Sequence record: NC_048170.1
Reading direction: 5' to 3' (one strand)
Source of the DNA: Escherichia phage vB_EcoM_Goslar
DNA: 64,000 nucleotides
Under the pieces are notes generated by a model that worked only from the letters and a program-made list of their open reading frames with translations, did no database searches and had not been told where the DNA came from. This document shows positions 27,778-64,000 of this stretch, one piece after another; the stretch's first letter is position 1; every line of letters begins with the position of its first letter. A program made the position numbers and the translations under genes.

Positions 27778-27786
27778 AATATGCTG

Positions 27787-43274: not shown

Positions 43275-43309
43275 ATTTTTTCTATTCGCAACGATAAACG
43301 GCATAGAAA

Positions 43310-43339: not shown

Positions 43340-43438
43340 CTGACTTATGTATCACGGTGCCGGATGAATGTCCGGTGCAATGAAACCATCTGCAACGTTG
43401 TCATCAAGAATATCATCCAACGAAGCAGCTACGGTAGT

Positions 43439-45661
43439 TCAGTTAGTCTGAACCGGCAGCTTGATGTTTTCAGTGTAGACCTTACGCAGGTTCACAACGT
43501 TAATCAGACCCAGCAGCGGGCAGTTGTTAACGAAGCGGCAGCGCGGCTGAACCATGGTTTCTTTAGAAACCTGACCGTTACGGGTAACCTGAGCAACAGA
43601 TACCAGTTCCGGTACATACAGGAACATACCGAAGGTCAGCGGATCCGGAGAACCCTGGATACCACGAGACAGGGTCACGAAGATCTTATCGCGCAGCATG
43701 ACGTTCGGGTTATCTACAACCACGAAGTTGAAGCTTACACCAACGGTACGGAAATCGCCATCGGTCTGCAGGAACTGCGGGATGTAGTTGTCAGTTGCTA
43801 CTACGCAACGCGGTTTCTCATCAGCGTTGGAAGACAGCAGCTGCAGAGCTGGCTGATAACCAGACTCGGAGTACATGCGGTATGCCATCTCACGAATCAC
43901 GTTCATGATCGCAGCAGACACTTCAGCACGACGTTCTGCAGTGGTGGTACCCTGAACAGATTTCTCCAGGTCCAGATTGATTTCTTCGAACCACGGACGG
44001 ATCAGGTAACGACCGAAACCTTCGATCTGGATGTCACCGAACTGACGGAAGCGAGAGGTCGCAACCGCTTTCAGTGCGTCTTTGTAGCTGAACAGTTTCT
44101 CAACCATCAGGTTGTCGAAACGTGCGTTAGCAGCTTGGATCAGAACGTCCAGGTCAGCAGCGTTTTCTTCCCAATCCAGCGGACGAGGAATGGAGAACGG
44201 AGCCAGCAGGCCGATTGCGTAACGTTCTTGCTTCATGTTGAAGTCAAGGTGCTTACCGCGCTCACGACGGTTGCTGTTGTTACGACGGATACGCAGTTCG
44301 TAACCAACCAGTTTGAAGCTCAGGTCTTCAGCCAGTTGTTTGAACTCTTCGCTCTTACGCGGTTGTTCGATGTTGTCCTGATCAACCAGGCGATACAGTT
44401 CAGCGTTAGCGCCGTTAACACGCAGACCCGCTTTCTCTACGTTGGAAGAACCGTAAACTTCGATCGCCAGCTGAGCAGCGGATTTCGCATCGATGATGTC
44501 CTGCAGCGCTTCGGCTTTCGCACCTTTAACGTCTTTGGTGTTCTCATCAACGAAGATGGAGTGGGTGTCGAACGCCAGGGTCATTTTGCGGAAGTCGCCT
44601 TCCAGGGATTTCTGGAAACCGTTGGTGATCAGACCAGATACGTCGAACGGTACGTAAGAGGTTTTGCTGTGCTTGGTAGATTTGATTTCCACCAGGATTT
44701 TGGTCAGCGTGATCTGAGCATCCAGCGCGTCGGTGTTGTCGCTGTAACCGTTAGCCAGAATGCTGTCGTCTTCAGCGATACCGATCATGTCGATCAGTTT
44801 ATCAACAGCCAGGTAAGACGTTTTATAAGTTACGCCTTTAATTTCGATGTCGCGCGGAGCAACGATAGCTTTGTCAACGAAGTACTGCGCGTTAGCATCG
44901 TCAGCACGATAGATCGGATGCAGATCGGTCACGTCGTTGGACAGAACGTCGTTATACATGAACGCATCCAGCAGCGGACGACGTACCCAATCAGCCGGAG
45001 TACCGTCAGCGTTACGACGCAGGTGGTTGAACACCAGCGGACGACGGAAAGATACGTCGTAACCGATCTGGTTCGGAGCCAGAACGATGGTGTTGTACAG
45101 TTCGTTACCCATGCGGCTCAGACGAGAAGCCTTCACGTTGAACACGACGGAGTACGGCATCATGTCACGCAGTTCTTTCTGGTCGTAGGACAGCTGAACC
45201 AGTTCTTCAGATTCGCAACCGCAGGAATCAGCAGCCATCATGACGAAGTTAGAGCTGTCAACTTCACGACCTGACGGAGTGGTGCTGATGTTCATGGAAC
45301 GTGCTTGTTTAGCATATTCTACCGGGTTGCCATGAGCCAGCATGATCAGTGCTGCTGCACGAGCCTGCTGTGCGTTCATGGTGAACAGCTGTTCTTCAAT
45401 ACGCTGCTTCTCTTCCGGAGTGGTGGTTTCGAAGCCCAGCAAGGTCAGAACCGGTTCTTCGGCTTTACGGATGTCGCTGCTGAAGCTCTTAACATCCATT
45501 TCGTTAACCAGTTTGTCCATGGATTTGAAATCAACCTTAGAAGCAGATTCCATAGACAGGAAGGTGTTCTCCAGACCTTTGTCTGCTGGTTTGCTACCAT
45601 TAGCGGTCAGGAACTGGCGAGTGGCCGCGACCTGTTGGCTAAGAAGGGTTTTATCATTCAT
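43439..45661 (-). CDS. putative major capsid protein (jumbo-phage-like size); tail sheath not excluded
   Basis: 740 aa; strongest optimal-codon bias in the window; SD AAGGA 9 nt upstream; own promoter-like and terminator elements; N-terminal ~160 aa contain S/A/G-x-E motifs (SME, GFE) of the kind cleaved by prohead proteases. Confidence 0.35.
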   Translation of the reverse strand: MNDKTLLSQQVAATRQFLTANGSKPADKGLENTFLSMESASKVDFKSMDKLVNEMDVKSFSSDIRKAEEPVLTLLGFETTTPEEKQRIEEQLFTMNAQQARAAALIMLAHGNPVEYAKQARSMNISTTPSGREVDSSNFVMMAADSCGCESEELVQLSYDQKELRDMMPYSVVFNVKASRLSRMGNELYNTIVLAPNQIGYDVSFRRPLVFNHLRRNADGTPADWVRRPLLDAFMYNDVLSNDVTDLHPIYRADDANAQYFVDKAIVAPRDIEIKGVTYKTSYLAVDKLIDMIGIAEDDSILANGYSDNTDALDAQITLTKILVEIKSTKHSKTSYVPFDVSGLITNGFQKSLEGDFRKMTLAFDTHSIFVDENTKDVKGAKAEALQDIIDAKSAAQLAIEVYGSSNVEKAGLRVNGANAELYRLVDQDNIEQPRKSEEFKQLAEDLSFKLVGYELRIRRNNSNRRERGKHLDFNMKQERYAIGLLAPFSIPRPLDWEENAADLDVLIQAANARFDNLMVEKLFSYKDALKAVATSRFRQFGDIQIEGFGRYLIRPWFEEINLDLEKSVQGTTTAERRAEVSAAIMNVIREMAYRMYSESGYQPALQLLSSNADEKPRCVVATDNYIPQFLQTDGDFRTVGVSFNFVVVDNPNVMLRDKIFVTLSRGIQGSPDPLTFGMFLYVPELVSVAQVTRNGQVSKETMVQPRCRFVNNCPLLGLINVVNLRKVYTENIKLPVQTN

Positions 45662-48081: not shown

Positions 48082-48106
48082 ACGCAAAAAAAAAGATTGT
48101 GCGGTT

Positions 48107-48138
48107 CCCTCCTCCAACCCGTAAGGGAAGGAGGAGGG
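48107..48138 (-). terminator. conserved intergenic stem-loop terminator
   Basis: ccctcctcc-aa-ccc-gtaa-ggg-aa-ggaggaggg; on the minus strand followed within ~10 nt by a U9 tract; between convergent genes. Confidence 0.6.
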
Positions 48139-48154
48139 GTTATGACCGCTTTGA

Positions 48155-48481
48155 TTAACTTATTGTCATGAATTCATTAGGTGAAAATTTCCAGCCGTTC
48201 TCAGTGAGAAGCGTGTTGAGTTTCGCTGCAACGATAAGCCATGCATGCATGGCCGTTACATCGTATTGGCGATTCACTCGACGTTGGTTTTCGATATTGA
48301 TTTGCTCCTGTTCAGTGATGTTTGGATAAAGTGCGATAGCGCTAGGTTTACCCAGCGCGCTAGTCATCACCGCAGTACATTCACTGATAATGTTGTTTAA
48401 GTGGTAGTTATACACCGTTCCACGCATGACGCGATGACGGCATTCGATAATAGCGTCGTAAATGATTTCTCGAGTAATCAT
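48155..48481 (-). CDS. hypothetical protein
   Basis: 108-aa ORF. Confidence 0.45.
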   Translation of the reverse strand: MITREIIYDAIIECRHRVMRGTVYNYHLNNIISECTAVMTSALGKPSAIALYPNITEQEQINIENQRRVNRQYDVTAMHAWLIVAAKLNTLLTENGWKFSPNEFMTIS

Positions 48482-49740: not shown

Positions 49741-49775
49741 ATAAACTGGAGTAATGCGAAATAAGACAGCATAAG

Positions 49776-49807
49776 CCCTCTCCCAACCCGTAAGGGAAGG
49801 GAGAGGG
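49776..49807 (-). terminator. conserved intergenic stem-loop terminator
   Basis: ccctctccc-aa-ccc-gtaa-ggg-aa-gggagaggg; compensatory stem changes relative to other copies; followed by CUUAUGCUG. Confidence 0.6.
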
Positions 49808-49811
49808 AATA

Positions 49812-51179
49812 TTAAACGGTTGGACGAACGGTGTTGTCTTTTTCTGGTGCAAGCCATAACGTGACCGTACCATGGCATGTCCACTGTGGTTCACGTACAG
49901 AAGAACCTGCCATCGTAACAGCACAATCGGTACGCATGATAACCCCGTATGCTTCGCAGAGATTGTTATCCTGCATCCACACAACTTTAGCAGGCATGCC
50001 GGGATACAACAAATCCATGTTTGCGTATTCCCACACCAACTGCATTGTTCTACCGCGTAATCCAGCAGTATTGCTTAATTCACGCCATCGGTTATCGGTT
50101 ACGCGTCCCATCCCTTTCGCCACCTTCACGTTATCGCCACGTTCTTCAGTTACGTACTCGCTAACGTTTACAGTACGACTGATTATTGTATCGCCCCCTT
50201 TTGATAACGTCATTCCCTGGCTCATCTGACTTGCCGAAACAAAACGCCCACCCGCATTACCTAACAACGAAGCCGCGTTATTGATGTCGCTTACCGACGC
50301 CCCTCTCGTACATGCAATTTCCACGTATTTGTCACGATTGATCCAGGTCTTGTCCATGCCCGGAAACATATCGGCAGGATAGTTGTAAAAGATAGCCGTG
50401 CGCCGACCATCAGAAAAACGGGTTTCGTCATAGAGAGGATAAATATACAGATACGGAGATTGATAATAACAACCGACGTCCGCTGAATAAATACCGACCT
50501 GGTTCTGGATTTTGTCTACGAGATCCATTGCGTTGGTACCGTGCGGAAGAATAAGCAACTTGAACAGGTTGTCGTTATTCGGTGCAACAATATCCACACC
50601 CTGCATTTTGAATCCGGTGTCAGCTTCAACCGCAGAAAGTATCTTGCTGAATTCGAGCCGTAACACATCCAGCACTTTCGACCCGGTATAGTTCTCACCG
50701 GTTTCTGATTGCATGAAGCTTTCAAGAACAGGATCGAACAGTTGAAATTGAAGGTCGACCATTTGTTCGTAGTCTTTCTTCGAAGAATCGGTTGCGGTAC
50801 GTTCGTCGGTAGCAGACATACGACTGTCTACGGTTGTTAAACAAACCGCCCGGTAGACATAAGCCTGTGTGGCATCGTCTACGGTTTGGCGTTGTCCACG
50901 CATCAGGCTGTACGCCTGCACGATGATGCGCATTTTAAGTTGTTGTTGGTACGGTAGAATGTATTTTCCGTAACTGCCGGGCGGGAACTTTACAGAGATA
51001 TAAAGTTCATCTCCTGCGTTACGTTCATAGTCTCGATACGTGTGGACTTGAGTCACTAAAGGAACAGACACCGTCATTGACGGCGTGATTAATTCCGCGG
51101 TGACTTTATACGCAACAGCAACTGCTTCCTGCGCAAATGTACCGATATACCGTCCTAACGGCGTCTGTTTGTAATCCAT
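49812..51179 (-). CDS. hypothetical structural-type protein
   Basis: 455-aa ORF at the end of a long co-directional block. Confidence 0.5.
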   Translation of the reverse strand: MDYKQTPLGRYIGTFAQEAVAVAYKVTAELITPSMTVSVPLVTQVHTYRDYERNAGDELYISVKFPPGSYGKYILPYQQQLKMRIIVQAYSLMRGQRQTVDDATQAYVYRAVCLTTVDSRMSATDERTATDSSKKDYEQMVDLQFQLFDPVLESFMQSETGENYTGSKVLDVLRLEFSKILSAVEADTGFKMQGVDIVAPNNDNLFKLLILPHGTNAMDLVDKIQNQVGIYSADVGCYYQSPYLYIYPLYDETRFSDGRRTAIFYNYPADMFPGMDKTWINRDKYVEIACTRGASVSDINNAASLLGNAGGRFVSASQMSQGMTLSKGGDTIISRTVNVSEYVTEERGDNVKVAKGMGRVTDNRWRELSNTAGLRGRTMQLVWEYANMDLLYPGMPAKVVWMQDNNLCEAYGVIMRTDCAVTMAGSSVREPQWTCHGTVTLWLAPEKDNTVRPTV

Positions 51180-51181
51180 GT

Positions 51182-51787
51182 TTAACGACCCCGTTGCTGT
51201 TGTTGAATGATGAATTCTTCGATCTTCGTACCACGGAATTCGCTGTGACGAACTGCTTGCAGTTGCTCTTCAACGGTTGGGCCTGCATTGAGACCACCAC
51301 GACGTGCGCGGTTGATGCCGATTTTACGGCGCTGGCCGATTTCACGCAAACGTGAAGATAATCCGCTCATTTCGGTTGGGTCTTTAATACGACCGCGTGC
51401 AACGTTCCACAGACCGCCCATGAACTCTTCGAGAATACGGCTGGCTTCGAGAGACGGTACGCGCGCGTTGGGATCGTTTTCAAGATTGTATTTAACGTAT
51501 TCCGTGTGTTCCAGAAGAAGCATGAACATCTTCATGGCGTTCACGTCGGGATTTGCAATACGCATAGGAACACCACGAGAATGTTTTTCAGCGGCCTGCG
51601 GTACGGTAAGCTGTGCGGGCACCTCTTCGTTCATGGCCATATCGTCGATTTCTGCAACCCCTGAAGAGTAGACGCCGCTGACCTCATTGGTGTAGTTATC
51701 CACCATGAATTTACGGGGAATCCAGAATTCGAATTTACGTTCAAATAGACGTTTGGTTGGGGTATCTTTAACGTGTTGTAGACTCAT
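51182..51787 (-). CDS. hypothetical protein
   Basis: 201-aa ORF; ATGA start/stop overlap with the upstream gene. Confidence 0.5.
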   Translation of the reverse strand: MSLQHVKDTPTKRLFERKFEFWIPRKFMVDNYTNEVSGVYSSGVAEIDDMAMNEEVPAQLTVPQAAEKHSRGVPMRIANPDVNAMKMFMLLLEHTEYVKYNLENDPNARVPSLEASRILEEFMGGLWNVARGRIKDPTEMSGLSSRLREIGQRRKIGINRARRGGLNAGPTVEEQLQAVRHSEFRGTKIEEFIIQQQQRGR

Positions 51788-53100
51788 GGTTCAATAGCTC
51801 CTGCTCGTAACAGCATAATAACGAACGGTGTGAAATAATAACGATCTAGCGGAGAAAGCAACGGTATTGCGTCGACCATCTGTTTCAGTGCTGGATGACT
51901 GATTGCTTTCTCGTCGACCATATCACGTACCATACTCTCAATGATCGTCATTGGGGCTTGGTTGCGATAGAAAGCCTCTGTGAAAACATAGTACGGATCG
52001 TCCGCTACCGATGGAAACAACGGAACGCCGTCATACTCCATCGATGTAAGGTTGGTCACCAACGGATTTGTCGGTGGTGTGTTTTCAGGTACAGCCAACT
52101 CTTTACCGACGTCTTCACCGAGCGACGTGGTCGCAGGCCACATACAGAACCGCGCACCACTAAAACGAATCCCGCCTGCAGCCGGGTATTGATAGAAACG
52201 CTTTGTTGACAACAGTGTGAATTTCACCGTCAACCGCGCCTCGTCTTCCCGACGTCCATCCATGACCCATTCAAAGACAGAAATCGCATTCGCTTCCTGG
52301 TTATCGTCTACGTTAAGGCGTCCAAAGTTCCATGATGGCTTTCCTTCAAGCGACGACCATAATTTCGTAAACGCGTTAACGCACCAGGGATCGTAGGTTG
52401 CAGCATCTTGACCAGGAACAAGCAGTGTGTTGAGTTCACGGCTGTAGAATTCATGGTAATACGCGTGACAAAGCCCCAGCGCACGACGGAGATAATCATA
52501 CTTACGATTGTATTTCTCCGTTGCCATTACGGGATGTTTTCCGTGCTTTAACTGGTCTTGGTCGTACAGTGTATCCTCAACGATTTTCGCTTCCAGTTCG
52601 ATAAGCTGTTTTTCGTCAAGAATACGTTGGAAGGAAATATCACATTCGTAAGCCGGTGCTAAGCTGATGTTCTTCGGCGTGATTCGGGTGATTGTGTACA
52701 CCGCGATACGATGATCGAGACCGGAGATTAACAGCATGTTACCTAAAAGAGGAACCGATACCGCCGGAAGTATACACGTACCCTCTGATTGAAAACGCGC
52801 AGTACCGTTGTCGTACGATGGCGTCAATGACGACATTAACTTGATAGGGTAATGTCTGATGCGACGGTACTGCTGTTCAGCGATGTCACGGTTAGCTTGA
52901 AAACTGCTTTGTTCATCATCGCGACCGAGAATCTGTTCGTAATAATCGCATTCTACGGAATAACCGGATGCGTAATTCACTAACCCGATTTGACTATTGT
53001 ATTGCTCATCCACCACCGCAGAACGATAAACATCGTCGCGAGCCTTCGCGGGTTGTTGGGGGTTGATGTTGGGTTTCGCGGGCTTCTTAGCGAGCGCCAT
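51784..53100 (-). CDS. hypothetical protein
   Basis: 438-aa ORF, SD TAGGAG. Confidence 0.5.
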   Translation of the reverse strand: MALAKKPAKPNINPQQPAKARDDVYRSAVVDEQYNSQIGLVNYASGYSVECDYYEQILGRDDEQSSFQANRDIAEQQYRRIRHYPIKLMSSLTPSYDNGTARFQSEGTCILPAVSVPLLGNMLLISGLDHRIAVYTITRITPKNISLAPAYECDISFQRILDEKQLIELEAKIVEDTLYDQDQLKHGKHPVMATEKYNRKYDYLRRALGLCHAYYHEFYSRELNTLLVPGQDAATYDPWCVNAFTKLWSSLEGKPSWNFGRLNVDDNQEANAISVFEWVMDGRREDEARLTVKFTLLSTKRFYQYPAAGGIRFSGARFCMWPATTSLGEDVGKELAVPENTPPTNPLVTNLTSMEYDGVPLFPSVADDPYYVFTEAFYRNQAPMTIIESMVRDMVDEKAISHPALKQMVDAIPLLSPLDRYYFTPFVIMLLRAGAIEP

Positions 53101-54652
53101 AGCGTTTTACTCCTACGATGGTACCGACAAGAATTCTCGGTACGAATAAACTACGATGTTTGAACCATGAAGCTGTTGTTGGGATACGTTTGATGGCTTC
53201 GATAAGCCCGATTAGCGTATAGCACCCCCGACTGTTCTTCTTAGGCCAGTACTTTTTATCTAGACCTAATACTGCAAACAGTTCATCCACCAGATTGGGA
53301 TAACAACACAACGCTTCAAGTGTTTCAACCTGTAACTGACTTAAATCTAACAGTATCGCTAGACGAACGTGGTAATCACTCCGTAAGTCTAACGGATCTT
53401 TCGCTTCAAGATCGCCAACGTCGGTTAATGTCCACGCGTCTCTTGCGTAGCGGTATTTGCCCTTCCAAACCTCAAGGAAAAAAGGAGACTGGTAATGACA
53501 TTTTGACCATTCCGGGTACTCGCGGAACCATCGAACAAGATCGGGATGGAATTCACCTTCTTCGGCTAACGAGTCCAACGTCACCAATAGGTTAGGTTGT
53601 TCGGGATCGATAGCAAGCAGCGCGGTGAAAAGCGTGCTTGATGGAAGCTCGGTTTCCACGCTCGATGGAGGCAACCATTCATCCAAATCGGGATACCGAT
53701 ACGCTTGAATCGACGCACCCTGCTCGGGCAAGAACGAATCACGAAGAATGTCCTGATACTGCACCACCATACCACCACGACGCGCACGGGATTTATCGCG
53801 CACCGAGAGGCTCGGTTTGTATAGGTACTCTTCGGGGAGTATCTGTTGGTGTACTTGAACCGGATACCGTGCTACGATGTGTGTTGGTGTGTCGTACGTG
53901 TAACGGTAAGAGAAGGTTGCGTTGTATGAAGAACTGTTCTCATTCTTCTCGGGTTTCGGAGCGTCGGTGAAATCAAATTGACCAGAGATCTCTTCTTGCA
54001 TTTCCCTGATAACCAATTTAACGCTCTTACCGTCACCTGCAACCGTCGTCATGGTGGTTGCACGGTTGTCGAACCCGTCTCTAAGATACTCACTGAATTT
54101 ATCCCCATAACCCGCGACAGCCTCTCGGTGGGTGTGGATAACTTTTAACAACATGAGAAACTGTGTAGGGATCGCATAGCTGTATTCGGCACTGAGAAAC
54201 GCGGCAACATGCTGACTTGTGAGCAAGCGTTTCATGTCGTACCACCAACGTTCGGCGGTGACCTGATCCTCGAACCGTTTGGTGATCTGCATGGTCGCAA
54301 CCATCGTACTGTAAACAGGTACTAGCGATACGCCAAGGTTACGGTCTTCAAATACTGGAAGACTGTTTCGTTTGTAAACGGTATCGTACATGGACGCCTG
54401 TTCTTCAGGGACAATGTTAAGCTCAATTTGGATGAACCCGTCAGCAGGCCCTTTTACATCCTGATCAACAACTTGCGGCGGTTGCTCGTTCGCAGCGCTC
54501 ATTTTAGCGTGAAGCGCTTCCCCTCGAAAAAGAATGTTCTCCCGATTATAATCCCACCCGCAAAGCTCGCTGATCTGCCGTAACACCGCGATTGCAACCG
54601 GACGTGTTACCGTCGCGTATACGTCATTGATTTTTCGATCAAGTTTAGGCAT
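53087..54652 (-). CDS. hypothetical protein
   Basis: Track ORF starts at GTG 54679; ATG at 54650-54652 preferred (SD GAGGA). Confidence 0.45.
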   Translation of the reverse strand: MPKLDRKINDVYATVTRPVAIAVLRQISELCGWDYNRENILFRGEALHAKMSAANEQPPQVVDQDVKGPADGFIQIELNIVPEEQASMYDTVYKRNSLPVFEDRNLGVSLVPVYSTMVATMQITKRFEDQVTAERWWYDMKRLLTSQHVAAFLSAEYSYAIPTQFLMLLKVIHTHREAVAGYGDKFSEYLRDGFDNRATTMTTVAGDGKSVKLVIREMQEEISGQFDFTDAPKPEKNENSSSYNATFSYRYTYDTPTHIVARYPVQVHQQILPEEYLYKPSLSVRDKSRARRGGMVVQYQDILRDSFLPEQGASIQAYRYPDLDEWLPPSSVETELPSSTLFTALLAIDPEQPNLLVTLDSLAEEGEFHPDLVRWFREYPEWSKCHYQSPFFLEVWKGKYRYARDAWTLTDVGDLEAKDPLDLRSDYHVRLAILLDLSQLQVETLEALCCYPNLVDELFAVLGLDKKYWPKKNSRGCYTLIGLIEAIKRIPTTASWFKHRSLFVPRILVGTIVGVKRYGAR

Positions 54653-55028
54653 CGATGTCGTCCTCGCTAATTTCCTCACCTCCTTGTTGTCGATATCCGG
54701 TATAATGAATCAGACTGCTCTGTAGAAGCTCTTTAACGAGCCCTAGACGCGTTTTATCTGTTTCATTGGACGTTTCCATTAATGTTTCTATTTCGTTGTT
54801 TAAAACAGCGTATAGCGCTTCTAACGGCAATCCTTGGATGATTGGTTTGTTGGTACCTTCCGGTAGTGCCGCAACAGGAATCTGCACGACGGTTTCATGT
54901 GAGGTATGTGGGTTGATACGGCAAATATACATACCGGGTACTGAATGTCGCGGGCACGCCGCTACCAAGCATGTCTGTTGCTGCGCACCGTTAAGTGCGA
55001 GTGAAAGAAATTTTGCTTCACGTGTCAT
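54645..55028 (-). CDS. hypothetical protein
   Basis: 127-aa ORF. Confidence 0.45.
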   Translation of the reverse strand: MTREAKFLSLALNGAQQQTCLVAACPRHSVPGMYICRINPHTSHETVVQIPVAALPEGTNKPIIQGLPLEALYAVLNNEIETLMETSNETDKTRLGLVKELLQSSLIHYTGYRQQGGEEISEDDIDA

Positions 55029-55116: not shown

Positions 55117-58100
55117 TTACTTGTAGGCACCGCAATGTGCTTTGATGAGGAAAAGCACCGCTTGCATCGGTTTATTGAACTGTTGCCATAACGTCAATGC
55201 AGGATGGAACAACCAATCTTCCAGGCCAAGAACAATACCGTAGTTAACGACATTATTAACATCGTTCTCAACGTTGAGTTCGCTGTCCAGGAATTTATCG
55301 ATTGAACGCAGGGTCTGCATGGCGTTGTCAGCAATAAGCCAAGCTTCATGTGCTTCACGAGCCGCACGCAGCACTGCCTCCAGTTCGCTGATAGTAGCTA
55401 CCGGTAATTCCTCACTGGTGAGGTCGTCAGAAACCGTAAACTGGCGATTGATACCGGTGTAGATCCACTGCATCAGTTTCGCTGCTTCCTCGTTCGGGTT
55501 GTTGCGCGTTGTCGCATAAGTCGCGCTCACCTTCACGATGTGCGTTTCACCAAGATACGCTTTGGACCCAACACCTTTACGATCGCTGTCTTTCCACGGT
55601 TGTACGGTAGCGACCATGAGCTTATCCCATTTCTGAATAGGAATACGCTTCAGACCAACAACCGATCCGGCGGATGTTTCGGACTGGTTGCTCTTCCGCA
55701 CTTCGCTGAGCTCACGATCGATAGCAACGATTAATTCACGCGTCATGTTACCGAGCATTTTGATTTCACCCAACGCAGCGATGAGCTTCTTCACATCGGT
55801 AACAGGTTCACCACCGATGGTAAGATGACGGATGAAACGTTTCAGAATAATCCGTTCCGCTGCTGGATTACCGCGACGCGCTTTGGCCAGCGCTTGCTGT
55901 GTTTCGGCGAACAGCTTATCCCATGGAGCCGTAGCGGCGGTATAGTAACGGTGGTTGGTTTCAATCCAGTTACCGATACGGTTGACCGCGCTCTTAACGG
56001 TATCCATGAATCCTTCCATCGCAATTTCGGTAGCTTCCACGTTACCCTGGAAGTTATCAGGACCGATCTCGCGTGCCGCTACCAGAATACCTTCCACCGC
56101 ACTCACCGCATGACGACCGATAGCCAGATTTCGCTGCGCTTCTTCAGCACGCTCAACGAATTCCACTACCGCAGGATCGTCGACGATTTCCGCCTCGGCA
56201 ACAGCACGCGTACCCGCATCACCTTCCAGCGTTTCGATGGTGACAACCGGATCGTTTTCACCGGCAACATCCTGGTACTCTTCCTGTTTGAGATCGCCGT
56301 TATCAGCCGCTGCGACAGCGGTGAGTATACGGACGGTAACATCACCGAGTTCTTTTGCAGTGAATCCGTAGACGGTGCATGCTGTTGTCGCAAAGTTCAT
56401 CAGTGTGCGTGTGCGTTTAACGATGTAGCCAACATCATAATCGCTACCGCTCTTATCGATGTCACGGATTAACCGTTCAGCTGTCTCCTGAAGTTGTGTA
56501 GCTGCTTTCAGAAGGTCTTCGTCAAACAGTTTCGTTGACGCATCGATCAGCATATCAACGCTAACGTTAGACGGTACAGCATCATCCTGCTGTTTCATGG
56601 CGCTAAGTTCGTCACGGAACTTACGAATACCGTCTAAAGCGGCGTCAGCGGTATGTCCGAACGCAGCCACGCCTGACATTGTTGTTGCCGTCAGCATGTC
56701 TGAATCTGCGTTTGGACTTTCGCCTTCTTTAAGATTCTTCAACTGGTCGAAGAACTTACGAGATGCTTCAGCGATACGTTTACTGTCTTTGACCGCGTTT
56801 ACGATCTTATCGACAGATTTAGCGTCGTTCGCGAGCAGAGTATCCAGTTTATTCCACTCAACGTCAACCTTCTTGGTATCGCTTGGTGGTGGAAGCAGTT
56901 TCATCACTGGCGTTGTACGTTGTTCTTTGGTGAGCTTATCGGCCTTCTCATCGATTTTCTTTTTACTAACACCGAAGAGTTTTCTTAGGCGTGCCACGAT
57001 TGCTTTTAAGAACTTCGCGACCGCTTCGTAAACCGATTTCAGAATCTGTTTAAAGCGACCTGGCTGCTTTTCCCCGTCTTCCAGATTGAGATCGCTATTC
57101 AGTGCGACATCAAGCTGTTTGTACGATTCCATGATGTATTCGTCTTTGATTTCAGGACGAATCTCGAAGCTTTCCATCGGACCTTCAGCCGGACGGAATT
57201 CCATTTTCAGTTCGCCTTGCAGGGTAGGGTCGATAATAGCGATAGCTTCACCCTGACCATCAGCGTTAAAGCGTTCAGCGTAACGAGTACGGCGAACAAT
57301 AACACTCTTATCCCCATCAAGACGACGTACCACCATGGTGCCAGGAATGTACGGTTGTTCTGTTTCAATGACGGTTACATCTGCTTCACCTTCGCCGAGA
57401 ATAACCGATGCGCGCTGTTCAACAACAGGAACATCTAATACGCCACGGGCTTCCAGCTCTTGACGAATTTCGAACGACTCTTGTTTCAGATCTTCATCTT
57501 CTTCGTTTTCGTCGTCTTCATCATCGTCACCTTTGGTGTTTTCATTACCCTCGGTGGTTGTGGTGTTTGTAGCAGCAGCGTCGGCGTCTGTGTTGGTAGG
57601 TTCTTCGGACGCAGGTTCGGTGGTGCCGTCCTCGGCAGGCGTTTCGTCAGCGTTATCGACGTCAACATCACCTTGCAGCTCCGTTTCTTGAGCAACTGCT
57701 TCGGCTTTCTGCTCGCCGGTATTACCATCATTAGCGTCGACAACAGGTTGTTCGTCAGCGACGGTATCTTCAACCTTTTCTACTTTCTCCACGACACGTT
57801 TAATCACGGTGACTTTGATGGGTTCTTCCGTTGTTTTGGTTTCTGGCGTCACCTCGGCTGCCGCAGCCGCTGTTTCAGCAACAGGTTCTGCTTTTTCCGG
57901 TTCGACGACATTACCTTTAACACCTTCGGTGGTTTCTGCAGGTTGCGCTGCCTGTTCGATTTGCGCCGGATTGGTTGGATCGATGGCGTTAGCCGCATCC
58001 TGAATCTTGTTCTTCAGGTTGTCGCGGTCAGCGTTAACGGTCGGGTCGTTGGTCACTTTCGGTGCCGGTGTTTCGGTCGGCGCGTTTGCCGGATACGGGT

Positions 58101-58494
58101 TCTTCGGCTCCTCGCCAGGTGCGGTCGGTACCGCGATCAGAACGAACGGCTGAACGTCGTTACCGTCTTCCATGGTTACGCCGCCGTTGCTTGGCGTGAA
58201 ACGGATTCGCAAACTACCATCGATAGGACGGGTCACAATAACAGCACGTACGACATCCTCGCCGTTTTCATCTGTGCTACGAATCACGCGAACAGCGTCA
58301 TCAACGGTAGCCCCTTCCTCGAGCGTATCTGATTCGATCGTCGCTTCGATGCTGTCTGGCCGTGCCGCTGTAGGTAATGCGATCACTTGCTCTTCTTTAT
58401 CAGTAGAAAGCGTTGCTTTGACTTCGATAGGTGTATCGCCGCTTTCCAGGTTAAGATGCGACTTACGCATCAGATCAGCTAACGATTTTTTCAT
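55117..58494 (-). CDS. large hypothetical virion-type protein with acidic low-complexity region
   Basis: 1125 aa; central Thr/Glu/Asp/Ala-rich disordered segment including DDDEDDENEEDEDL; internally duplicated ~80-aa unit (ESFEIR motifs). Confidence 0.5.
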   Translation of the reverse strand: MKKSLADLMRKSHLNLESGDTPIEVKATLSTDKEEQVIALPTAARPDSIEATIESDTLEEGATVDDAVRVIRSTDENGEDVVRAVIVTRPIDGSLRIRFTPSNGGVTMEDGNDVQPFVLIAVPTAPGEEPKNPYPANAPTETPAPKVTNDPTVNADRDNLKNKIQDAANAIDPTNPAQIEQAAQPAETTEGVKGNVVEPEKAEPVAETAAAAAEVTPETKTTEEPIKVTVIKRVVEKVEKVEDTVADEQPVVDANDGNTGEQKAEAVAQETELQGDVDVDNADETPAEDGTTEPASEEPTNTDADAAATNTTTTEGNENTKGDDDEDDENEEDEDLKQESFEIRQELEARGVLDVPVVEQRASVILGEGEADVTVIETEQPYIPGTMVVRRLDGDKSVIVRRTRYAERFNADGQGEAIAIIDPTLQGELKMEFRPAEGPMESFEIRPEIKDEYIMESYKQLDVALNSDLNLEDGEKQPGRFKQILKSVYEAVAKFLKAIVARLRKLFGVSKKKIDEKADKLTKEQRTTPVMKLLPPPSDTKKVDVEWNKLDTLLANDAKSVDKIVNAVKDSKRIAEASRKFFDQLKNLKEGESPNADSDMLTATTMSGVAAFGHTADAALDGIRKFRDELSAMKQQDDAVPSNVSVDMLIDASTKLFDEDLLKAATQLQETAERLIRDIDKSGSDYDVGYIVKRTRTLMNFATTACTVYGFTAKELGDVTVRILTAVAAADNGDLKQEEYQDVAGENDPVVTIETLEGDAGTRAVAEAEIVDDPAVVEFVERAEEAQRNLAIGRHAVSAVEGILVAAREIGPDNFQGNVEATEIAMEGFMDTVKSAVNRIGNWIETNHRYYTAATAPWDKLFAETQQALAKARRGNPAAERIILKRFIRHLTIGGEPVTDVKKLIAALGEIKMLGNMTRELIVAIDRELSEVRKSNQSETSAGSVVGLKRIPIQKWDKLMVATVQPWKDSDRKGVGSKAYLGETHIVKVSATYATTRNNPNEEAAKLMQWIYTGINRQFTVSDDLTSEELPVATISELEAVLRAAREAHEAWLIADNAMQTLRSIDKFLDSELNVENDVNNVVNYGIVLGLEDWLFHPALTLWQQFNKPMQAVLFLIKAHCGAYK

Positions 58495-58509: not shown

Positions 58510-59616
58510 TTAAAAGTAATATTTCAGCGCCTCGCGAGAGACATCAAGCATAGCCGCTGTTGAATTCGTAAAGAACTCGGCATAGCCCACAAGCGGCACC
58601 TTGATCCACGCGGTATACGCTGTAAGGTATCGAGAAAGGGCTACCATAGCATCATCAGAAGCAGTAGTAACTGACAACTGACCTTGTTGACGATAAACGT
58701 CGTTAAGTTTTGCTTGTAGATTCCCTGCGATTTCGAGTAACTCGTTGGCGTACTTTTTACGATGGTAACTAACCAGCAAATCAACACCCGTATTTACAGA
58801 CTCGAGTAGAAGACCAACTTGTTCTAATGTTGGCATTGTAACCACCATATCCCGTTCAACGGATGGGACATCCTGGACTTCAAACCGTGCGGATTGAATG
58901 GCGAGGGACTGTTGAATTGATCCAGAACCTGAAGCGGTAACTTGATCGAGTCGTAGCATACGGTTGCCCAGTAACGTCACGTTGACGAGTTTCGATTCGT
59001 TCAGCGTACTGTAGACTTTATGCAATAACGTATACGCATCACGGTTAATCACATCGATTAATGCGGTATCCGTCTGTTTTAAGATAATGTCGAGTGCTCT
59101 ATCTAACGTATTAGCGAACTGCTTAAAATCATCACGGAACGACGAAGACAAGAGATATTCAGCGATCGCTAAATTCTGTTTGTATAACGTATTCCCGGTT
59201 GTGAAATCGAACCCAAAACTGTTCCCATACCGTAGGTGCGGAGCCAACGTCGACGAAGCTTCGAAGCTTTGCGCGATAGGTTTACGACCAACGGCTTTTG
59301 TGTAGTGACGGCGGATGTTGCTGAGTTCGAGCTGTAGTGCGCGACTACGATCGATAAACCGTGCGATAAACGCGGTAATGTTCCGCAACGTTGTCCAGAT
59401 TGCATCGATGATAGCTTTGATGATCTTCATCGCAAGTTGATCGTACGATTCCATTGTGAGGAGATCAGCACTTTCCGTGGTATAACTGGTTGATAGCATA
59501 CCACCCGCTTGCTGATAAATAAGCTGGTGAATTTGTCGTTGCGTTGCTGTCTCTGGCACAGGTAATGTTTTTAACAAGCTTAACGCTTGAATCTGTCCAT
59601 CATTGGTCTGCAGCAT
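58510..59616 (-). CDS. paralog family B protein (tandem array member)
   Basis: Track ORF 58510..59667; ATG at 59614-59616 has SD TGAGGAA; shares the helical core LTMESYDQLAMKIIKAIIDAIW with the three downstream ORFs. Confidence 0.45.
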   Translation of the reverse strand: MLQTNDGQIQALSLLKTLPVPETATQRQIHQLIYQQAGGMLSTSYTTESADLLTMESYDQLAMKIIKAIIDAIWTTLRNITAFIARFIDRSRALQLELSNIRRHYTKAVGRKPIAQSFEASSTLAPHLRYGNSFGFDFTTGNTLYKQNLAIAEYLLSSSFRDDFKQFANTLDRALDIILKQTDTALIDVINRDAYTLLHKVYSTLNESKLVNVTLLGNRMLRLDQVTASGSGSIQQSLAIQSARFEVQDVPSVERDMVVTMPTLEQVGLLLESVNTGVDLLVSYHRKKYANELLEIAGNLQAKLNDVYRQQGQLSVTTASDDAMVALSRYLTAYTAWIKVPLVGYAEFFTNSTAAMLDVSREALKYYF

Positions 59617-60901
59617 TGCTGGTTTCCTCAAGTTCGAGATGCGCGTCAAGATAATCATTAAGACCATCGATGACGTCGCAGACAGTTAACAGGAATCGGG
59701 CAAAAGCAACCGCCTGGAAGCCGACGACGTTACGCGCGATACCCACGCGTTGAACGATAGCGGATGCTGCGGTATCGTTATTGCCCATCTGTTGTAGCAA
59801 ACGTTCATACGGTTGAATCCATTCGTCCTGGTCGGCAAGGCTTGCTTCAAGACAACGTTTAAATTCCAACTGTCGTAGCGTAGACCATAACGTACTTAAT
59901 GCGTTGATGATCGCGTTGGTTCCGTCGATAACATCGTTTAACGGTAAGAAACGGAATCCGTCTTTTGCTGATTGGAAAGGTGCGGCTTCCCACACAACGC
60001 TGAACTGCGTTCCTGTTGCGTCTTCGATGTTGTGTAATTTAAGATAGGAAGCACCAACAGGAACGTCAACGACCAGATCGTCTGTTCCGGTAGGTGTTAA
60101 CGGCTTCTCGCATAACGCCTCGTTGATGGCCTCGAGAATATTCTCCCAACAGGCTTCGTTTTCCGCAGCGATACCTTCTTTGTTATCCGCTGATGGTGCT
60201 TTTAGTAGCTGCATTAATAACGGATCAAGTTGACGGTGCCATGCTGCGAGGATTCCTGTGTTCGTTACGATGTTTTCTGCGGTTTGTCGTAAATCAGCAA
60301 TACTGCTTACCGCACCGCCTTTCGGATGGAGATATCGCCAGTTGTAGGGAAAGTTCTCCCAGAATGCGTTATCTTCATCGACGTCGTATTCGGAAATAGT
60401 TTTCAACGCAGCCGCTTTCTTTAATAACGGCTTCACCTGACGAACGAATCGACGATAACAGCGATTGCAGATATCGATCGCATAGCGGTATAATTCGTTC
60501 ATGTAAAGCCATAATGCACGGGTTGCTTCTTTTGCTGTCTTGTCAAAACTTTCCATGTTCAGACTCATCCCGCTGGAAGTTTCCTCTTCCAGACCCTCGA
60601 TGATGTGGTTTGGATCCATCCCCATCCCGGCTGCTGCGGTCGATGCGATATGTTTGATGGTGTTGATATCGCGTTCCTCGACTTCAGCCATGTTTGGGAC
60701 AATATCCAGCCTGAGTTTATTTAATGTTTGAAGGTGTTGTTCACCTTCTTTCATCGCCGTGTTTGTTTCGTCGATTGAGTGAAACTGATTCTCAATATTA
60801 CTGGCATCGAGAATGTTGCCAGCGATACCGAACGATTCTACAGGTTCATCATCAATCCCTTGAAACAACGATGTCATGGGTTGTTGTAACACGTTTTCCA
60901 T
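59600..60901 (-). CDS. paralog family B protein
   Basis: Conserved IKHIASTAAAGMGMD and ALWLYMNELY blocks; SD TAGGAG. Confidence 0.5.
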   Translation of the reverse strand: MENVLQQPMTSLFQGIDDEPVESFGIAGNILDASNIENQFHSIDETNTAMKEGEQHLQTLNKLRLDIVPNMAEVEERDINTIKHIASTAAAGMGMDPNHIIEGLEEETSSGMSLNMESFDKTAKEATRALWLYMNELYRYAIDICNRCYRRFVRQVKPLLKKAAALKTISEYDVDEDNAFWENFPYNWRYLHPKGGAVSSIADLRQTAENIVTNTGILAAWHRQLDPLLMQLLKAPSADNKEGIAAENEACWENILEAINEALCEKPLTPTGTDDLVVDVPVGASYLKLHNIEDATGTQFSVVWEAAPFQSAKDGFRFLPLNDVIDGTNAIINALSTLWSTLRQLEFKRCLEASLADQDEWIQPYERLLQQMGNNDTAASAIVQRVGIARNVVGFQAVAFARFLLTVCDVIDGLNDYLDAHLELEETSNAADQ

Positions 60902-61008
60902 TTGGGACTCCTACGTAGGAAAATCTTGGCGGGTGATCATGTCCGCCATTTACCTTCTGAACCGTTGATTCAGAAGTCAAAAGATAACCGGATACCAACG
61001 CCATAAAA

Positions 61009-61041
61009 CCTTCCTCCAACCCGTAAGGGAAGGAGGAAGGG
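61009..61041 (-). terminator. conserved intergenic stem-loop terminator
   Basis: ccttcctcc-aa-ccc-gtaa-ggg-aa-ggaggaagg; minus-sense followed by UUUUAUGGCG. Confidence 0.6.
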
Positions 61042-61050
61042 ATATAGTGG

Positions 61051-62340
61051 TTATGCTTTTTCGGTTACAGCATCGAAGTATTTCGCTGCAGCAAATACGG
61101 CATCCGCATATTGACGGTTAGCAACACGGAGGATCTTAGCTGCTAATACCGCACTCAAGAGCGCCATTTCAGAAATGGCGCTTATATAAGGGCGAACGGT
61201 TTCACGATCTGCTTCCGGTAGATTGTCGAGCATACCGTCCCATTTGGTTTTAATTTTCATACCGTTCAGTTTAGCGGTACGTTCGACAGTACTCGTTAAA
61301 CTTTCCGTCTGGTTAAAATACGCAGGGTCAACAATACGAAACGCGTTAAGATACGAAGTCAGTGCGGCTTTCAATTCGTCGTCGTTATTGAAAATGTTCG
61401 CGTTTTCGATACTACCAGTCGCGGTTTCTTCCACTTCGATCTGAATATTCTTCACGAGCGCGCAGGCCTTAATGGTATCTTTCTCAGCCATAAGAGCGTC
61501 AAGACCTTTAACAACATATCGTTTCCCACCGCTTTCTGGTATTTTGAGTCCTTTTAACGCGGGCTTGATGGCGTAAATATAGTCGTCCAGAATATCGGCA
61601 AGTGTCGTCAAATCGGTTAGTTTATTAACTTTCTTGTTAATGTCGTCGGTTTGGAGTAGTAAAAAAGAGGATGCTTGTGTGGATGCCGCTAACTGCTCAA
61701 TATGTTTACGGACCTCCAACGCGTTAACTGTTTTTGCGTTAGGGAACATGCTAATCATATTCCCGGTCGGTTTATTTAGTTGTTTGATGTGACGCTCGCC
61801 TTTATTTACAGCGGTTGCAACATCGGTAATTTTTTTATACGCTACCGCAAGGTTTTTGAAAAGCAGCTGAATCAGTTTACATAACTGTTCAGCCATGTTC
61901 GCAATGATTACCCAAACTGCGTATAGCGCTTGTGCTGCGCGTTCTTTAAAGCCTTCCAGTACGATAGCCTGCCCTTCCACCAAACGATCGTCAGCTTGGA
62001 ACATGTCTTCATCAGACATCCCCAGGTTAGCTGCTGACGTCGAAGCAATCTGGCGGATAAGGGCGATGTCGCTCGCACGTGCTTCAGGGATCGTAGGTGC
62101 GATCATGTACGCGGTATCTTCCAGCGTTGCTGAGGTACGCACCGCAATTTCAGCCAGTTCGCTGGATTCGTCGATCGTCTCGTCGGTGCGTCGAATCACC
62201 AACTCAACTTCGTCCTCTTCAATTTCTGCGTTAGGATCGTTCTGCTCCGCTGGAATTGCCGCAAGAAGATCTTCGGCGCTGAGCAGTGCGAGTTCGAATG
62301 CGTTTTTATTGACGTTATCAAAAAGAGAAATGCGGGCCAT
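61051..62340 (-). CDS. paralog family B protein
   Basis: IRQIASTSAANLGM and LVEGQAIVLEGFKERAAQALYAVWVII blocks; acidic N-terminus; SD AAGGAA. Confidence 0.5.
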   Translation of the reverse strand: MARISLFDNVNKNAFELALLSAEDLLAAIPAEQNDPNAEIEEDEVELVIRRTDETIDESSELAEIAVRTSATLEDTAYMIAPTIPEARASDIALIRQIASTSAANLGMSDEDMFQADDRLVEGQAIVLEGFKERAAQALYAVWVIIANMAEQLCKLIQLLFKNLAVAYKKITDVATAVNKGERHIKQLNKPTGNMISMFPNAKTVNALEVRKHIEQLAASTQASSFLLLQTDDINKKVNKLTDLTTLADILDDYIYAIKPALKGLKIPESGGKRYVVKGLDALMAEKDTIKACALVKNIQIEVEETATGSIENANIFNNDDELKAALTSYLNAFRIVDPAYFNQTESLTSTVERTAKLNGMKIKTKWDGMLDNLPEADRETVRPYISAISEMALLSAVLAAKILRVANRQYADAVFAAAKYFDAVTEKA

Positions 62341-62349
62341 GTTAGTTCC

Positions 62350-63666
62350 TTAACCTTTGGTATAAGCGTTAACGAGAGTGTTGATAAATGAAGTCAGTGC
62401 GCGAAGATACTGGTAAGCGAATTGGTTTTCAATACGGTTCTCTTTACCGCAAAGCAGAATCGCACGCTTAACGAGTTTAGGATAGATCTCGACATACGGT
62501 TGGTAGCTTGCATCAAAATTCTGCTCGTTGAAGCGTTTCATGGTGATTTCCTGGATACGCTCCATGGTGCGAATTTTATTGCGAGAGAATATCTCAGAGA
62601 AAGCACGTCCGCGTTTTGTTACCATCAACAAATCTTTCGCGAACGTCAGTTGTCGAACGCTACGTAATTCGTCAGGTGTTGGCAGGACATACGTTTCTGG
62701 ATCGTTATCCCATTCAACATCTTCAACGATAATATCCAAGTCGAGGTAACGTTTAACAGCATCGATGATGTTGTCTTTTGACGCATCGAATTCTTTCAAG
62801 AAGACTGCGCCGTTGATGTAGCGGATGCGTTTCCCAGAAACTGTTGGGGTGATAACATCAGCACCTTCCACGGAACCGCGATTTTCCAGTGTCGATTTGA
62901 CAGCGTGCAAGAAAGACAGATAATCAACAGGAAGTTTTTCAACCTTATCTAAATGGAAGTCGATGATGTTTAATCCTAACCCATCAATAACTGAATAGCC
63001 GTCCGATTTAAGGAACATCTGATTGAAGGTATCGATGTTGCTTTTCAGCGTGTCTACGCCACCAACGCTGTTACGGTTAGGGAAAAGTGTCCGCCACTCC
63101 GCTTTAAACGCAACCTCTTTATTTTCCTCGTATTTGCCTTTAGGCATTTGTTCGAGGTCTGCAACGGCTTTCTGAAAATTGCGCGTCTCGTCGTAAACAA
63201 GACGGGTAAGCTTCTCGAAGGCTGCTGCCAAGGTCAGGGCAATATCAACAATGATATCCCAGATCTTTTTCATGGCTTTTACAACGGTGTCCTTAAACCC
63301 CTCAACAACCAAAGCTTCTCCAACCTCAACACGATCGGTTGGCGTCAGCAATGCTTCGGAGGGTAGACCCAGAGCAATCGACGCGGATTCTTGAACGTTA
63401 CGAACCAACGCAACATCACTGTAGTTAGCCGATTCGATAGTCGGAGCAACATCAAAACTGATTTCCCGTAATGCAGCAACAGCAGGGAAAGCACGATCAA
63501 GCGCATCTTCATGTTCGTCGATTGCCGCCAAACGTAATTCGACGCCATCGGCATCGATGACTTCAGCGGCAGGCTCCACAGCAAGCGCCTCAGCAACAAT
63601 AGGATCTTTTTCAAACGCCTCAAGGCTGATATCGCCTTGGGTCGCAAATAGCGGTATGTGTACCAT
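62350..63666 (-). CDS. paralog family B protein
   Basis: VRNVQESASIALGL and VEVGEALVVEGFKDTVVKAMKKIWDII blocks; track start is TTG, ATG at 63664-63666 has GGAG spacing 9. Confidence 0.5.
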   Translation of the reverse strand: MVHIPLFATQGDISLEAFEKDPIVAEALAVEPAAEVIDADGVELRLAAIDEHEDALDRAFPAVAALREISFDVAPTIESANYSDVALVRNVQESASIALGLPSEALLTPTDRVEVGEALVVEGFKDTVVKAMKKIWDIIVDIALTLAAAFEKLTRLVYDETRNFQKAVADLEQMPKGKYEENKEVAFKAEWRTLFPNRNSVGGVDTLKSNIDTFNQMFLKSDGYSVIDGLGLNIIDFHLDKVEKLPVDYLSFLHAVKSTLENRGSVEGADVITPTVSGKRIRYINGAVFLKEFDASKDNIIDAVKRYLDLDIIVEDVEWDNDPETYVLPTPDELRSVRQLTFAKDLLMVTKRGRAFSEIFSRNKIRTMERIQEITMKRFNEQNFDASYQPYVEIYPKLVKRAILLCGKENRIENQFAYQYLRALTSFINTLVNAYTKG

Positions 63667-63714
63667 GTGTTGTCTCCAGTAATGATTCAAAAGATAAACC
63701 TGAGCGGCATAGAA

Positions 63715-63746
63715 CCCTCTCCCAACCCGTGAGGGAAGGGAGAGGG
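63715..63746 (-). terminator. conserved intergenic stem-loop terminator (GTGA loop)
   Basis: ccctctccc-aa-ccc-gtga-ggg-aa-gggagaggg; minus-sense followed by UUCUAUGCCG. Confidence 0.6.
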
Positions 63747-63768: not shown

Positions 63769-63999
63769 TTACTGCTGTGCTGCGTCAGCCGGTTTCTCAG
63801 CCGCCTGGCCGCCGTACTCTTTCAGCATTTTAGCAACGCCATCCAGGACAGCGTTACCTGCCTGAACACCGTATTTCATCAGACCGGTCTGCGGGTTCAC
63901 GTAGCAGGAACGTGCGTCTTTCAGTGCAGACAGTACAGCTTGAACACGCTGTTTTTCCTGAGCGGAAACTTCGCCTTTCTTAGACAGATCGGCTTCCAT
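63769..63999 (-). CDS. small protein, predicted highly expressed; 5' end may lie beyond the window
   Basis: 76-aa ORF with strongly optimised codons; ATG at 63997-63999 touches the window edge. Confidence 0.4.
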   Translation of the reverse strand: MEADLSKKGEVSAQEKQRVQAVLSALKDARSCYVNPQTGLMKYGVQAGNAVLDGVAKMLKEYGGQAAEKPADAAQQ

Positions 64000-64000
64000 A

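Follow-up and report, generated by a model that had tools for sequence, protein, structure and literature searches.

An operon of probable PF12699 internal head proteins in Escherichia phage vB_EcoM_Goslar and its predicted maturation junctions

Described internal head proteins and the Goslar locus

A chimallivirus virion contains proteins of the PF12699 (phiKZ_IP) family in thousands of copies, and some of these proteins are injected along with the DNA. We examined a minus-strand gene array at positions 58,510 to 63,666 of a 64,000-nucleotide stretch of Escherichia phage vB_EcoM_Goslar (NC_048170.1; "the window" below means this whole stretch), for which a first-pass annotation made from the letters alone had proposed four paralogous, head-internal or ejected proteins of the phiKZ/SPN3US type. 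The closest described system is Goslar itself, a nucleus-forming jumbo phage. A cryo-electron microscopy preprint (10.64898/2026.04.21.720040) covers the same genes, gp53-gp58, as six PF12699-type genes in the same order, with only the end members gp53 and gp58 readily recognised by Pfam, gp54-gp57 sharing the fold by AlphaFold only, and the region syntenic with phiKZ gp92-gp97. All six proteins were detected by mass spectrometry in purified Goslar virions, at about 330 (gp53), 70 (gp54), 50 (gp55), 60 (gp56), 50 (gp57) and 2150 (gp58) copies per virion (10.64898/2026.04.21.720040), which disposes of the possibility, raised in the first-pass annotation, that the proteins are absent from virions. 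Goslar gp58 is injected and marks the early-infection (EPI) vesicle. The first-pass interpretation is correct but was already known for Goslar in 2026, and the window holds no new kind of system, its genes having been described. The preprint is silent on proteolytic processing, on a junction motif and on the evolutionary rates of gp53-gp58; we add a predicted maturation junction for each of the six, evidence that no other part of this conserved structural region evolves as fast as the operon, where genes were apparently gained or lost and alleles replaced, and the finding that the N-terminal module, not the helix-rich domain, is the common part of the low-copy paralogues.

Three other systems offer comparisons. 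The phiKZ inner-body proteins are cleaved by the gp175 protease and abundant in the head, and several are co-injected; the PF12699 paralogues of phiKZ are proteolysed and co-injected, and co-injection has been shown for phiKZ gp90, gp92, gp93, gp95 and gp97. The Goslar array resembles phiKZ gp92-gp97 (plus gp162 and gp163) in genomic position, helix-rich fold and a large last member (gp97 in phiKZ, gp53 in Goslar), but BLASTP identity is at background level and the gene number differs; several phiKZ members reach 100-200 copies, whereas Goslar has one dominant member and no ordered inner body was seen. In paralogue family A of SPN3US (gp53 and gp54, high-abundance ejection proteins), an acidic propeptide of about 125-137 residues with an isoelectric point (pI) of 4.1-4.4 precedes a basic domain of about 300 residues. 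The cleavage sites of these two proteins were mapped by mass spectrometry as AQE125↓GWKETL and AQE124↓SY (PMC10052503; ↓ marks a cleavage site or junction), and these sites align with a Glu↓Gly/Ser-Phe/Tyr junction in the window proteins, of which Goslar gp55-gp57 also have the same acidic N-terminal pattern. SPN3US differs in having two members at more than 600 copies each and in the P3 residue of the site, always Ala there and V/V/N/T in Goslar gp57/gp56/gp55/gp54. T4 IPI-IPIII are a functional analogy only, with N-terminal targeting, trimming by the prohead protease after Glu and ejection with the DNA (discussion in PMC10052503 and general knowledge); they have no sequence or fold relationship to the Goslar proteins and are small, with a capsid-targeting sequence of about 10 residues.

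Against this background, we consider it very probable that a late operon of six genes encodes the PF12699 internal head proteins of Goslar and that gp54-gp57 are its four low-copy members in the middle; these would be trimmed near the junction and delivered with the DNA.

Gene content, synteny and family membership

The operon consists of six genes in the order Z-D-C-B-A-E, the letters being those used below, and is syntenic with phiKZ gp92-gp97:

63769-64000, minus strand: Z (Goslar gp58), 3' part only; the window end cuts the gene, and the last 76 codons are present
62350-63666, minus strand: D (Goslar gp57), 438 amino acids from Met9; acidic N-terminal module 1-122, predicted junction E122↓G123-F, helix-rich PF12699-type domain
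61051-62340, minus strand: C (Goslar gp56), 429 amino acids; predicted junction E129↓G130-F
59600-60901, minus strand: B (Goslar gp55), 433 amino acids; predicted junction E117↓S118-F
58510-59616, minus strand: A (Goslar gp54), 368 amino acids from Met18; 56-residue N-terminus, predicted junction E56↓S57-Y
55117-58494, minus strand: E (Goslar gp53), 1125 amino acids; long acidic N-terminal region, predicted junction AME827↓GF, C-terminal PF12699-like domain

The four consecutive open reading frames (ORFs) of the first-pass annotation, A to D, are present where it placed them, and the helix motifs that it quoted are found in the proteins; the four genes are real, but the array also includes E and Z. 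A to D are genuine coding genes under purifying selection, because the ratio of nonsynonymous to synonymous substitution rates (dN/dS) is 0.06-0.18 against two relatives that are 95-97% identical. The longest ORF of D spans 62350-63690, with Met9 at 63666, and a length of 438 amino acids is also found in all homologues listed (at least 120). For A, the longest ORF reaches 59667 (385 amino acids), and the true start is probably Met18 at 59616, since a GAGGAA Shine-Dalgarno sequence lies 7 nucleotides upstream and a 92%-identical homologue (P0121) begins there. D and C are separated by 9 nucleotides, C and B by a spacer of 149, and A and E by 15, while B and A overlap by 17; AGGAA-type Shine-Dalgarno sequences are present at each of the D-C, B-A and A-E junctions.

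Gene numbers were assigned from the names of Protein Data Bank (PDB) chains for gp50 and gp51 together with contiguous numbering. The ORF at 51784-53100 (w438) matches the chain 'Tail Adaptor Protein gp50', and the ORF at 53087-54679 (w530), from its Met10, is 100% identical over 521 amino acids to 'Tail Terminator protein gp51'; IMG/VR relatives are 99.4% identical over this ORF. The preprint describes gp50 as the stopper and gp51 as the tail terminator (10.64898/2026.04.21.720040). A 127-amino-acid ORF is then gp52, followed by E (gp53), A (gp54), B (gp55), C (gp56) and D (gp57). The major capsid protein of the window (ORF 43439-45661) matches PF25620 (PhiKZ_MCP) at 5e-218, and also matches PDB entries 11bt/11fg/11mk/11ml (740 amino acids, 1645 bits) and a 583-amino-acid chain of 36za (residues 158-740); the preprint reports 740 residues, 583 modelled, with the N-terminal 157 absent (10.64898/2026.04.21.720040). 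The structure matches identify the phage as Goslar or a near-identical Goslarvirus, and on their account the newly proposed genus 'Bapsvirus' was rejected as its identity. The chain names of composite 36za look inconsistent with the gene matches. Its 'Inner-peripheral baseplate spoke gp220' corresponds to the full 455-amino-acid ORF 49812-51179 (1-455, 1039.5 bits), a phiKZ gp101 homologue, and its 'Collar Protein gp126' carries the gp51 sequence (ORF 53087-54679), which 11lc names 'Tail Terminator protein gp51'.

Downstream of the array, three large genes have matches in phiKZ gp98 (5e-30), gp99 (3e-32) and gp101 (9e-41), and a gp91 homologue (PhiKZ_gp91, PF25618, 1.2e-46) lies just upstream of Z in relatives. 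The array thus sits between the gp91 homologue and the gp98-gp101 homologues, where phiKZ has its gp92-gp97 'internal head protein' operon. In relatives that are 95-97% identical, Z is present at its full length of 443 amino acids between the gp91 homologue and D (L004 8567-9898). The last ~20 residues of Z are wholly different between the window, ending in ...KMLKEYGGQAAEKPADAAQQ (63769-63830), and a 95%-identical relative, ending in ...KMLRDYTVLPAMAISKEANKEQK (L004 9830-9898); the C-terminal tail of Z is therefore variable.

A more distant comparison is provided by an uncharacterised sister lineage of Goslar, represented by contigs L007, L008, L009 and L010 (Logan SRR32006993, SRR25909052 and SRR33371455; ENA ERZ27271673) and reached through contigs carrying relatives of P0122, an orthologue of A; a pattern scan of IMG/VR did not find it. 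Its operon, laid out like that of Goslar, reads:

gp91-like gene, 177 amino acids
sD, 447 amino acids, PF12699 at 60.8 bits
sC, 461 amino acids
sB, 452 amino acids
sA, 387 amino acids
sE, 1666-1978 amino acids
homologues of gp98/99/100/101

The first member, sD, was considered as the orthologue of D and rejected, being the orthologue of Z (44% identity, 8e-104). The pairs sC-C (1e-32), sB-B (5.6e-34, 28% identity) and sA-A (7e-31) are orthologous, and the giant sE proteins are expanded orthologues of E. No orthologue of D was found in the sister lineage, whose operon has five PF12699 genes, one fewer than that of Goslar, which points to D, closest to the C type, having been gained in one lineage or lost in the other.

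We compared the array proteins all against all by BLASTP and, at the profile level, by hhalign. Among the four proposed paralogues, similarity is significant for B, C and D, both by BLASTP (C-D 2.3e-18, B-D 8.4e-10, B-C 7e-8, all alignments lying within the N-terminal ~200 residues) and by hhalign (4e-13 to 8e-19). It is not significant for A, which had no significant BLASTP match to B/C/D, scored inside the range of its own shuffled copies on a B/C/D profile hidden Markov model (HMM) and gave P = 0.002 over 40 columns in hhalign; A is linked to the others only through PF12699 and predicted structure. Against the PF12699 model (length 387, Pfam gathering score 27 bits), Z scores 69.8 bits when the full gene is taken from relatives. 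A scores 21.3 bits over model positions 89-384 (296 of 387 positions aligned), D 21.2 bits over positions 13-124, and E 22.3 bits over residues ~808-1062; B and C have no Pfam match. Clear orthologues or neighbouring paralogues do reach the gathering score. A phmmer search with A against 1.8 billion representatives returned two clusters only, those of P0121 and P0122, too few for a deep profile, the latter cluster 24% identical to A (E 7.7e-26) and scoring 59.6 bits on PF12699. B is tied to the family because its orthologue sB scores 28.3 bits, and C and D join it through their direct similarity to B; precomputed Pfam labels also place PF12699 on many D homologues that are at least 94% identical. 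The A family aligns by hhalign to phiKZ/SPN3US members (3e-6, 88% probability), and E aligns in register with known PF12699 members. Other searches were uninformative: PHROGs gave nothing useful for A-E, a profile search with the B/C/D alignment returned only same-species homologues, sequence searches of the PDB, made with A, with D and with two profiles of the family, found no relatives, and tblastn of D against phages found no match.

Predicted structures point in the same direction for the two proteins modelled. AlphaFold2 models of A (from a 5-sequence alignment; predicted local distance difference test score, pLDDT, 62; predicted template modelling score, pTM, 0.60) and D (13 sequences; pLDDT 72, pTM 0.71) have the same architecture, with an acidic N-terminus that is poorly ordered, a helix of 51 residues (A 58-108, D 122-172), further helices and short strands, and a long C-terminal helical hairpin. 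In a Foldseek search of BFVD, the best E-values were 3e-8 for A and 1e-11 for D, with template modelling (TM) scores of about 0.55-0.68, the matches being 'internal head / virion structural' proteins of 201phi2-1, PhiEaH1, Psa21, Noxifer, RP12 and others; the two models have at least 31 of their top 50 targets in common. Both models thus share the helix-rich fold of known PF12699 members. The proposed assignment to head-internal or ejected proteins of the phiKZ/SPN3US type is borne out by the PhiKZ_MCP match, the gp92-gp97 position, these shared Foldseek matches and the presence of gp53-gp58 in virions. On the models, each protein appears to be built of two parts, an acidic, partly helical N-terminal module and a helix-rich domain of ~300 residues that opens with the 51-residue helix.

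N-terminal modules, junction motif and transcription signals

The N-terminal modules of B, C and D comprise 117-129 residues with a pI of 4.05-4.2, and the domains that follow the junction are near-neutral to basic in C and D, B being an exception (pI 4.7). In A, the N-terminus before the junction is weakly acidic and only 56 residues long. Conservation among B/C/D is highest in the ~76 residues that precede the junction, with 17-39% identity against 9-23% in the C-terminal remainder, and the D model has a confidently predicted helix-loop-helix there (H39-76, H82-99). The first-pass annotation had described these regions as divergent, acidic and rich in S/A/G-x-E triplets. They are acidic in B, C and D but not divergent, and the triplets are not more common than in shuffles of matched composition (D 5 against 4.1, C 4 against 4.2, B 1 against 3.1; A has 0).

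A different motif marks the boundary between the two parts. The conserved form is ...L/I-x-x-E↓(G/S)(F/Y)..., as in D (LVVE122↓GF), C (IVLE129↓GF), B (LNME117↓SF), A (LTME56↓SY) and E (IAME827↓GF), and Glu↓Gly/Ser-Phe/Tyr is invariant in a six-sequence alignment of the B/C/D type. The junction coincides with the start of the 51-residue helix in both models, and in hhalign alignments D E122, A E56 and E E827 all fall on SPN3US gp53 E125. By analogy with SPN3US, D, C, B and A may be cut exactly at the E↓G/S-F/Y bond. At the junction, S/A/G-x-E is present only in E (A-M-E) and Z (A-T-E, S-F-E); the predicted mature N-terminus of Z is S111 and/or S150. In the Goslar major capsid protein, G-C-E150↓S aligns with the cleavage sites phiKZ GLE163↓N and SPN3US ATE130↓Y; order in the capsid structure begins shortly after E150, at S158, the first 157 residues being absent from it. 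The prohead protease of Goslar probably has conventional specificity, because the capsid protein carries G-C-E150↓S at the aligned site. An S80 protease alignment searched against IMG/VR gave 80 loci, Goslar-like contigs not among them.

The fate of the module after cleavage may resemble that in phiKZ, where N-terminal segments of gp93 and gp162 stay on the inner capsid surface as fibre-like minor capsid proteins (PMC11297242); the B/C/D module may likewise stay capsid-bound. The acidic N-terminal 800 residues of E contain three more E↓S-F/Y motifs (LKQE339↓SF, GPME441↓SF and YIME456↓SY), and the sister-lineage homologues of E have four such motifs each, mostly LK(Q/T)E↓(S/G)(F/Y). The motifs suggest that E may be a precursor processed into several pieces, much like a polyprotein; it shows no internal repeats by self-BLAST.

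Putative transcription signals are present as a family of hairpin cassettes, each consisting of (C)ATAT, a 14-bp stem CCCTCCTCCTTCCC, loop TTAC, stem GGGTTGGAGGAGGG and then T(T/C)TATG. The core is matched nine times in the window, where 2.2 matches would be expected by chance, and there are seven true copies, all intergenic and at gene ends, of which the last two lie in the operon:

4130-4200, 27730-27800, 43290-43360, 48090-48160 and 49760-49830: cassette copies elsewhere in the window
61002-61040, minus strand: cassette in the C-B spacer; hairpin 61009-61040, CCTTCCTCCTTCCC-TTAC-GGGTTGGAGGAAGG, then TTTTATG
63708-63746, minus strand: cassette upstream of D; hairpin 63715-63746, CCCTCTCCCTTCCC-TCAC-GGGTTGGGAGAGGG, then TTCTATG

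Hairpins were said to separate three of the genes; they are real, but only two are present, upstream of D and between C and B, D and C being 9 nucleotides apart and B and A overlapping. Late promoters of phiKZ centre on TATG, and for this reason we read the cassette as a possible terminator combined with a late-promoter-like TATG, the copy at 63708-63746 being a putative terminator of Z and promoter of D.

Taken in order, the proposed course of events would begin with late transcription from the hairpin/TATG cassettes and translational coupling of adjacent genes. The N-terminal module would target each protein into the prohead, where a prohead protease of the S80 family would cut at or near the Glu↓Gly/Ser-Phe/Tyr junction, and the helix-rich domain would be kept inside the DNA-filled head and enter the EPI vesicle together with the DNA. 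The cleavage site, the ejection of gp54-gp57 and their function after injection are inferred by homology.

Sequence divergence and competing explanations

The operon is the fast-evolving part of an otherwise conserved structural block. Between Goslar and the sister lineage, amino-acid identity is 54-57% in flanking structural genes and 27-30% in A, B, C and the C-terminus of E. Within the species complex, rates were computed between the window and relatives L001 and L002. The flanks are 98.4-100% identical with dN/dS of 0.00-0.06 and synonymous divergence (dS) mostly of ~0.15-0.23; the 127-amino-acid ORF reaches a dN/dS of 0.30, on 4 substitutions only. D, B and A are 95-98% identical with dN/dS of 0.06-0.10 (D 0.06-0.07). 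C is the most variable member in the species complex, and its homologues are 65-98% identical against at least 94% for those of D. Its identity falls to 78.6%, with dN/dS of 0.15-0.18 and dS of 0.8-1.0, even where the neighbouring genes of the same relatives are 95-100% identical. Because this dS is so high (0.8-1.0 against ~0.15-0.2), the pattern indicates that gp56 was replaced by a divergent allele through recombination inside the operon. A similar replacement of gp53 in one relative is pointed to by 84.5% identity and a dN/dS of 0.31. No sign of positive selection was seen at the whole-gene level, all dN/dS values being well below 1.

Several observations weigh against reading gp54-gp57 as trimmed and ejected PF12699 proteins. 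At P3 of the junction, D and C have V, B has N and A has T, whereas the phiKZ and SPN3US proteases require S/A/G, and the exact scissile bond is uncertain for this reason. No prohead protease gene was found in the window. A to D each fall below the Pfam gathering score, B and C without any Pfam match; A has no significant similarity to B/C/D by BLASTP, HMM or hhalign; and confidence in the AlphaFold2 models is only moderate (pLDDT 62 for A and 72 for D). Finally, no ordered inner body was seen in Goslar (10.64898/2026.04.21.720040), and injection has been shown for gp58 only.

An alternative that we regard as unlikely is that gp54-gp57 are fixed components lining the capsid, with one bundle for each asymmetric unit close to a vertex and the N-terminal helix-loop-helix as its anchor, gp58 alone being the bulk ejected protein. 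Their copy numbers of about 50-70 each are near 55 (5 x 11 vertices) or 60, though these numbers carry an error of about ±50%, and some density around the vertex-binding complex, similar to a helical bundle of the PF12699 type, was left without assignment (10.64898/2026.04.21.720040). The retention of phiKZ gp93/gp162 N-terminal segments on the inner capsid surface (PMC11297242) would fit such an anchor, as would the helix-loop-helix being the best conserved and most confidently predicted part of B/C/D; yet gp92, gp93, gp95 and gp97 of phiKZ are injected, and the fast divergence of the array would be unusual for stoichiometric shell components when the flanking structural genes are 98.4-100% conserved. 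That same divergence could instead mean that the paralogues are diversified injected effectors directed at host factors such as defence systems or membranes, kept by an arms race and not as head structure, which we find about as doubtful. The array's low identity to the sister lineage (27-30% against 54-57% in the flanks), the lack of a D orthologue there, its dN/dS of 0.06-0.31 against lower values in the flanks, and the apparent allelic replacements at gp56 (C homologues 65-98% identical) and, in one relative, gp53 would all be expected of effectors, and phiKZ gp93, once injected, binds membrane and metabolic proteins of the host. However, dN/dS stays well below 1 throughout, relaxed constraint fits equally well, no enzymatic or binding domain was detected in the array proteins, and a host interaction of gp54-gp57 is conjecture.

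Membership of A in the family is a separate matter. We give almost no credence to the idea that A is an unrelated helical protein, present in the array by chance: BLASTP and the B/C/D HMM do not separate it from shuffled controls, and hhalign gives only P = 0.002 over 40 columns, but it aligns to 296 of 387 PF12699 positions, its orthologue P0122 (E 7.7e-26) scores 59.6 bits, its model shares the architecture and at least 31 of the top 50 Foldseek matches of D, and its junction motif aligns in register. Quite improbable, too, is a more specific proposal drawn from the models, in which the PF12699 domain would form a helical bundle active on membranes, like ClyA, with a small beta 'tongue', the injected paralogues would build, shape or open the EPI vesicle, and gp54-gp57 would be tuned to host envelopes or defences. 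In a Foldseek search of the PDB with the D model nothing was significant (best E 0.04); about 20 of the top 50 of these non-significant matches are ClyA-family toxins or tip proteins of type III secretion systems, the ClyA-family matches being SmhB, AhlB, ClyA, Cry6Aa, MakE and SmhA (TM 0.1-0.25, E at least 0.04). The C-terminal helices of B and C are moderately hydrophobic, and phiKZ gp93 co-purifies with host membrane proteins. We continue to favour low-copy, trimmed and ejected internal head proteins as the account of gp54-gp57.

Megablast of the region gave no match in INPHARED phages (a collection without Goslar), complete E. coli genomes or PLSDB plasmids. Near-identical copies of the genes (P0001-P0120) occur on contigs of 237-249 kb in drafts assembled from isolates of Salmonella, Shigella, E. 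coli and Enterobacter, which fits the reported expansion of Goslarvirus from 1 to 237 genomes by 'bacterial assembly-associated phage sequences' (PMC12768965).

The window holds other paralogues besides those of the operon. Five virion structural proteins (phrog_1037 / phrog_2935) form a second family, at 15826-16719, 16862-17404, 27787-28692, 29609-30460 and 30471-31418, and may correspond to SPN3US paralogue family B. A further pair of paralogues, repeat-rich and ~700 amino acids long, lies at 18462-20510 and 24197-26350; both match phrog_2163 and many tail-fibre families, in 4-6 stretches each, and are candidates for the abundant DUF7941 filament proteins of Goslar, gp22 and gp23.

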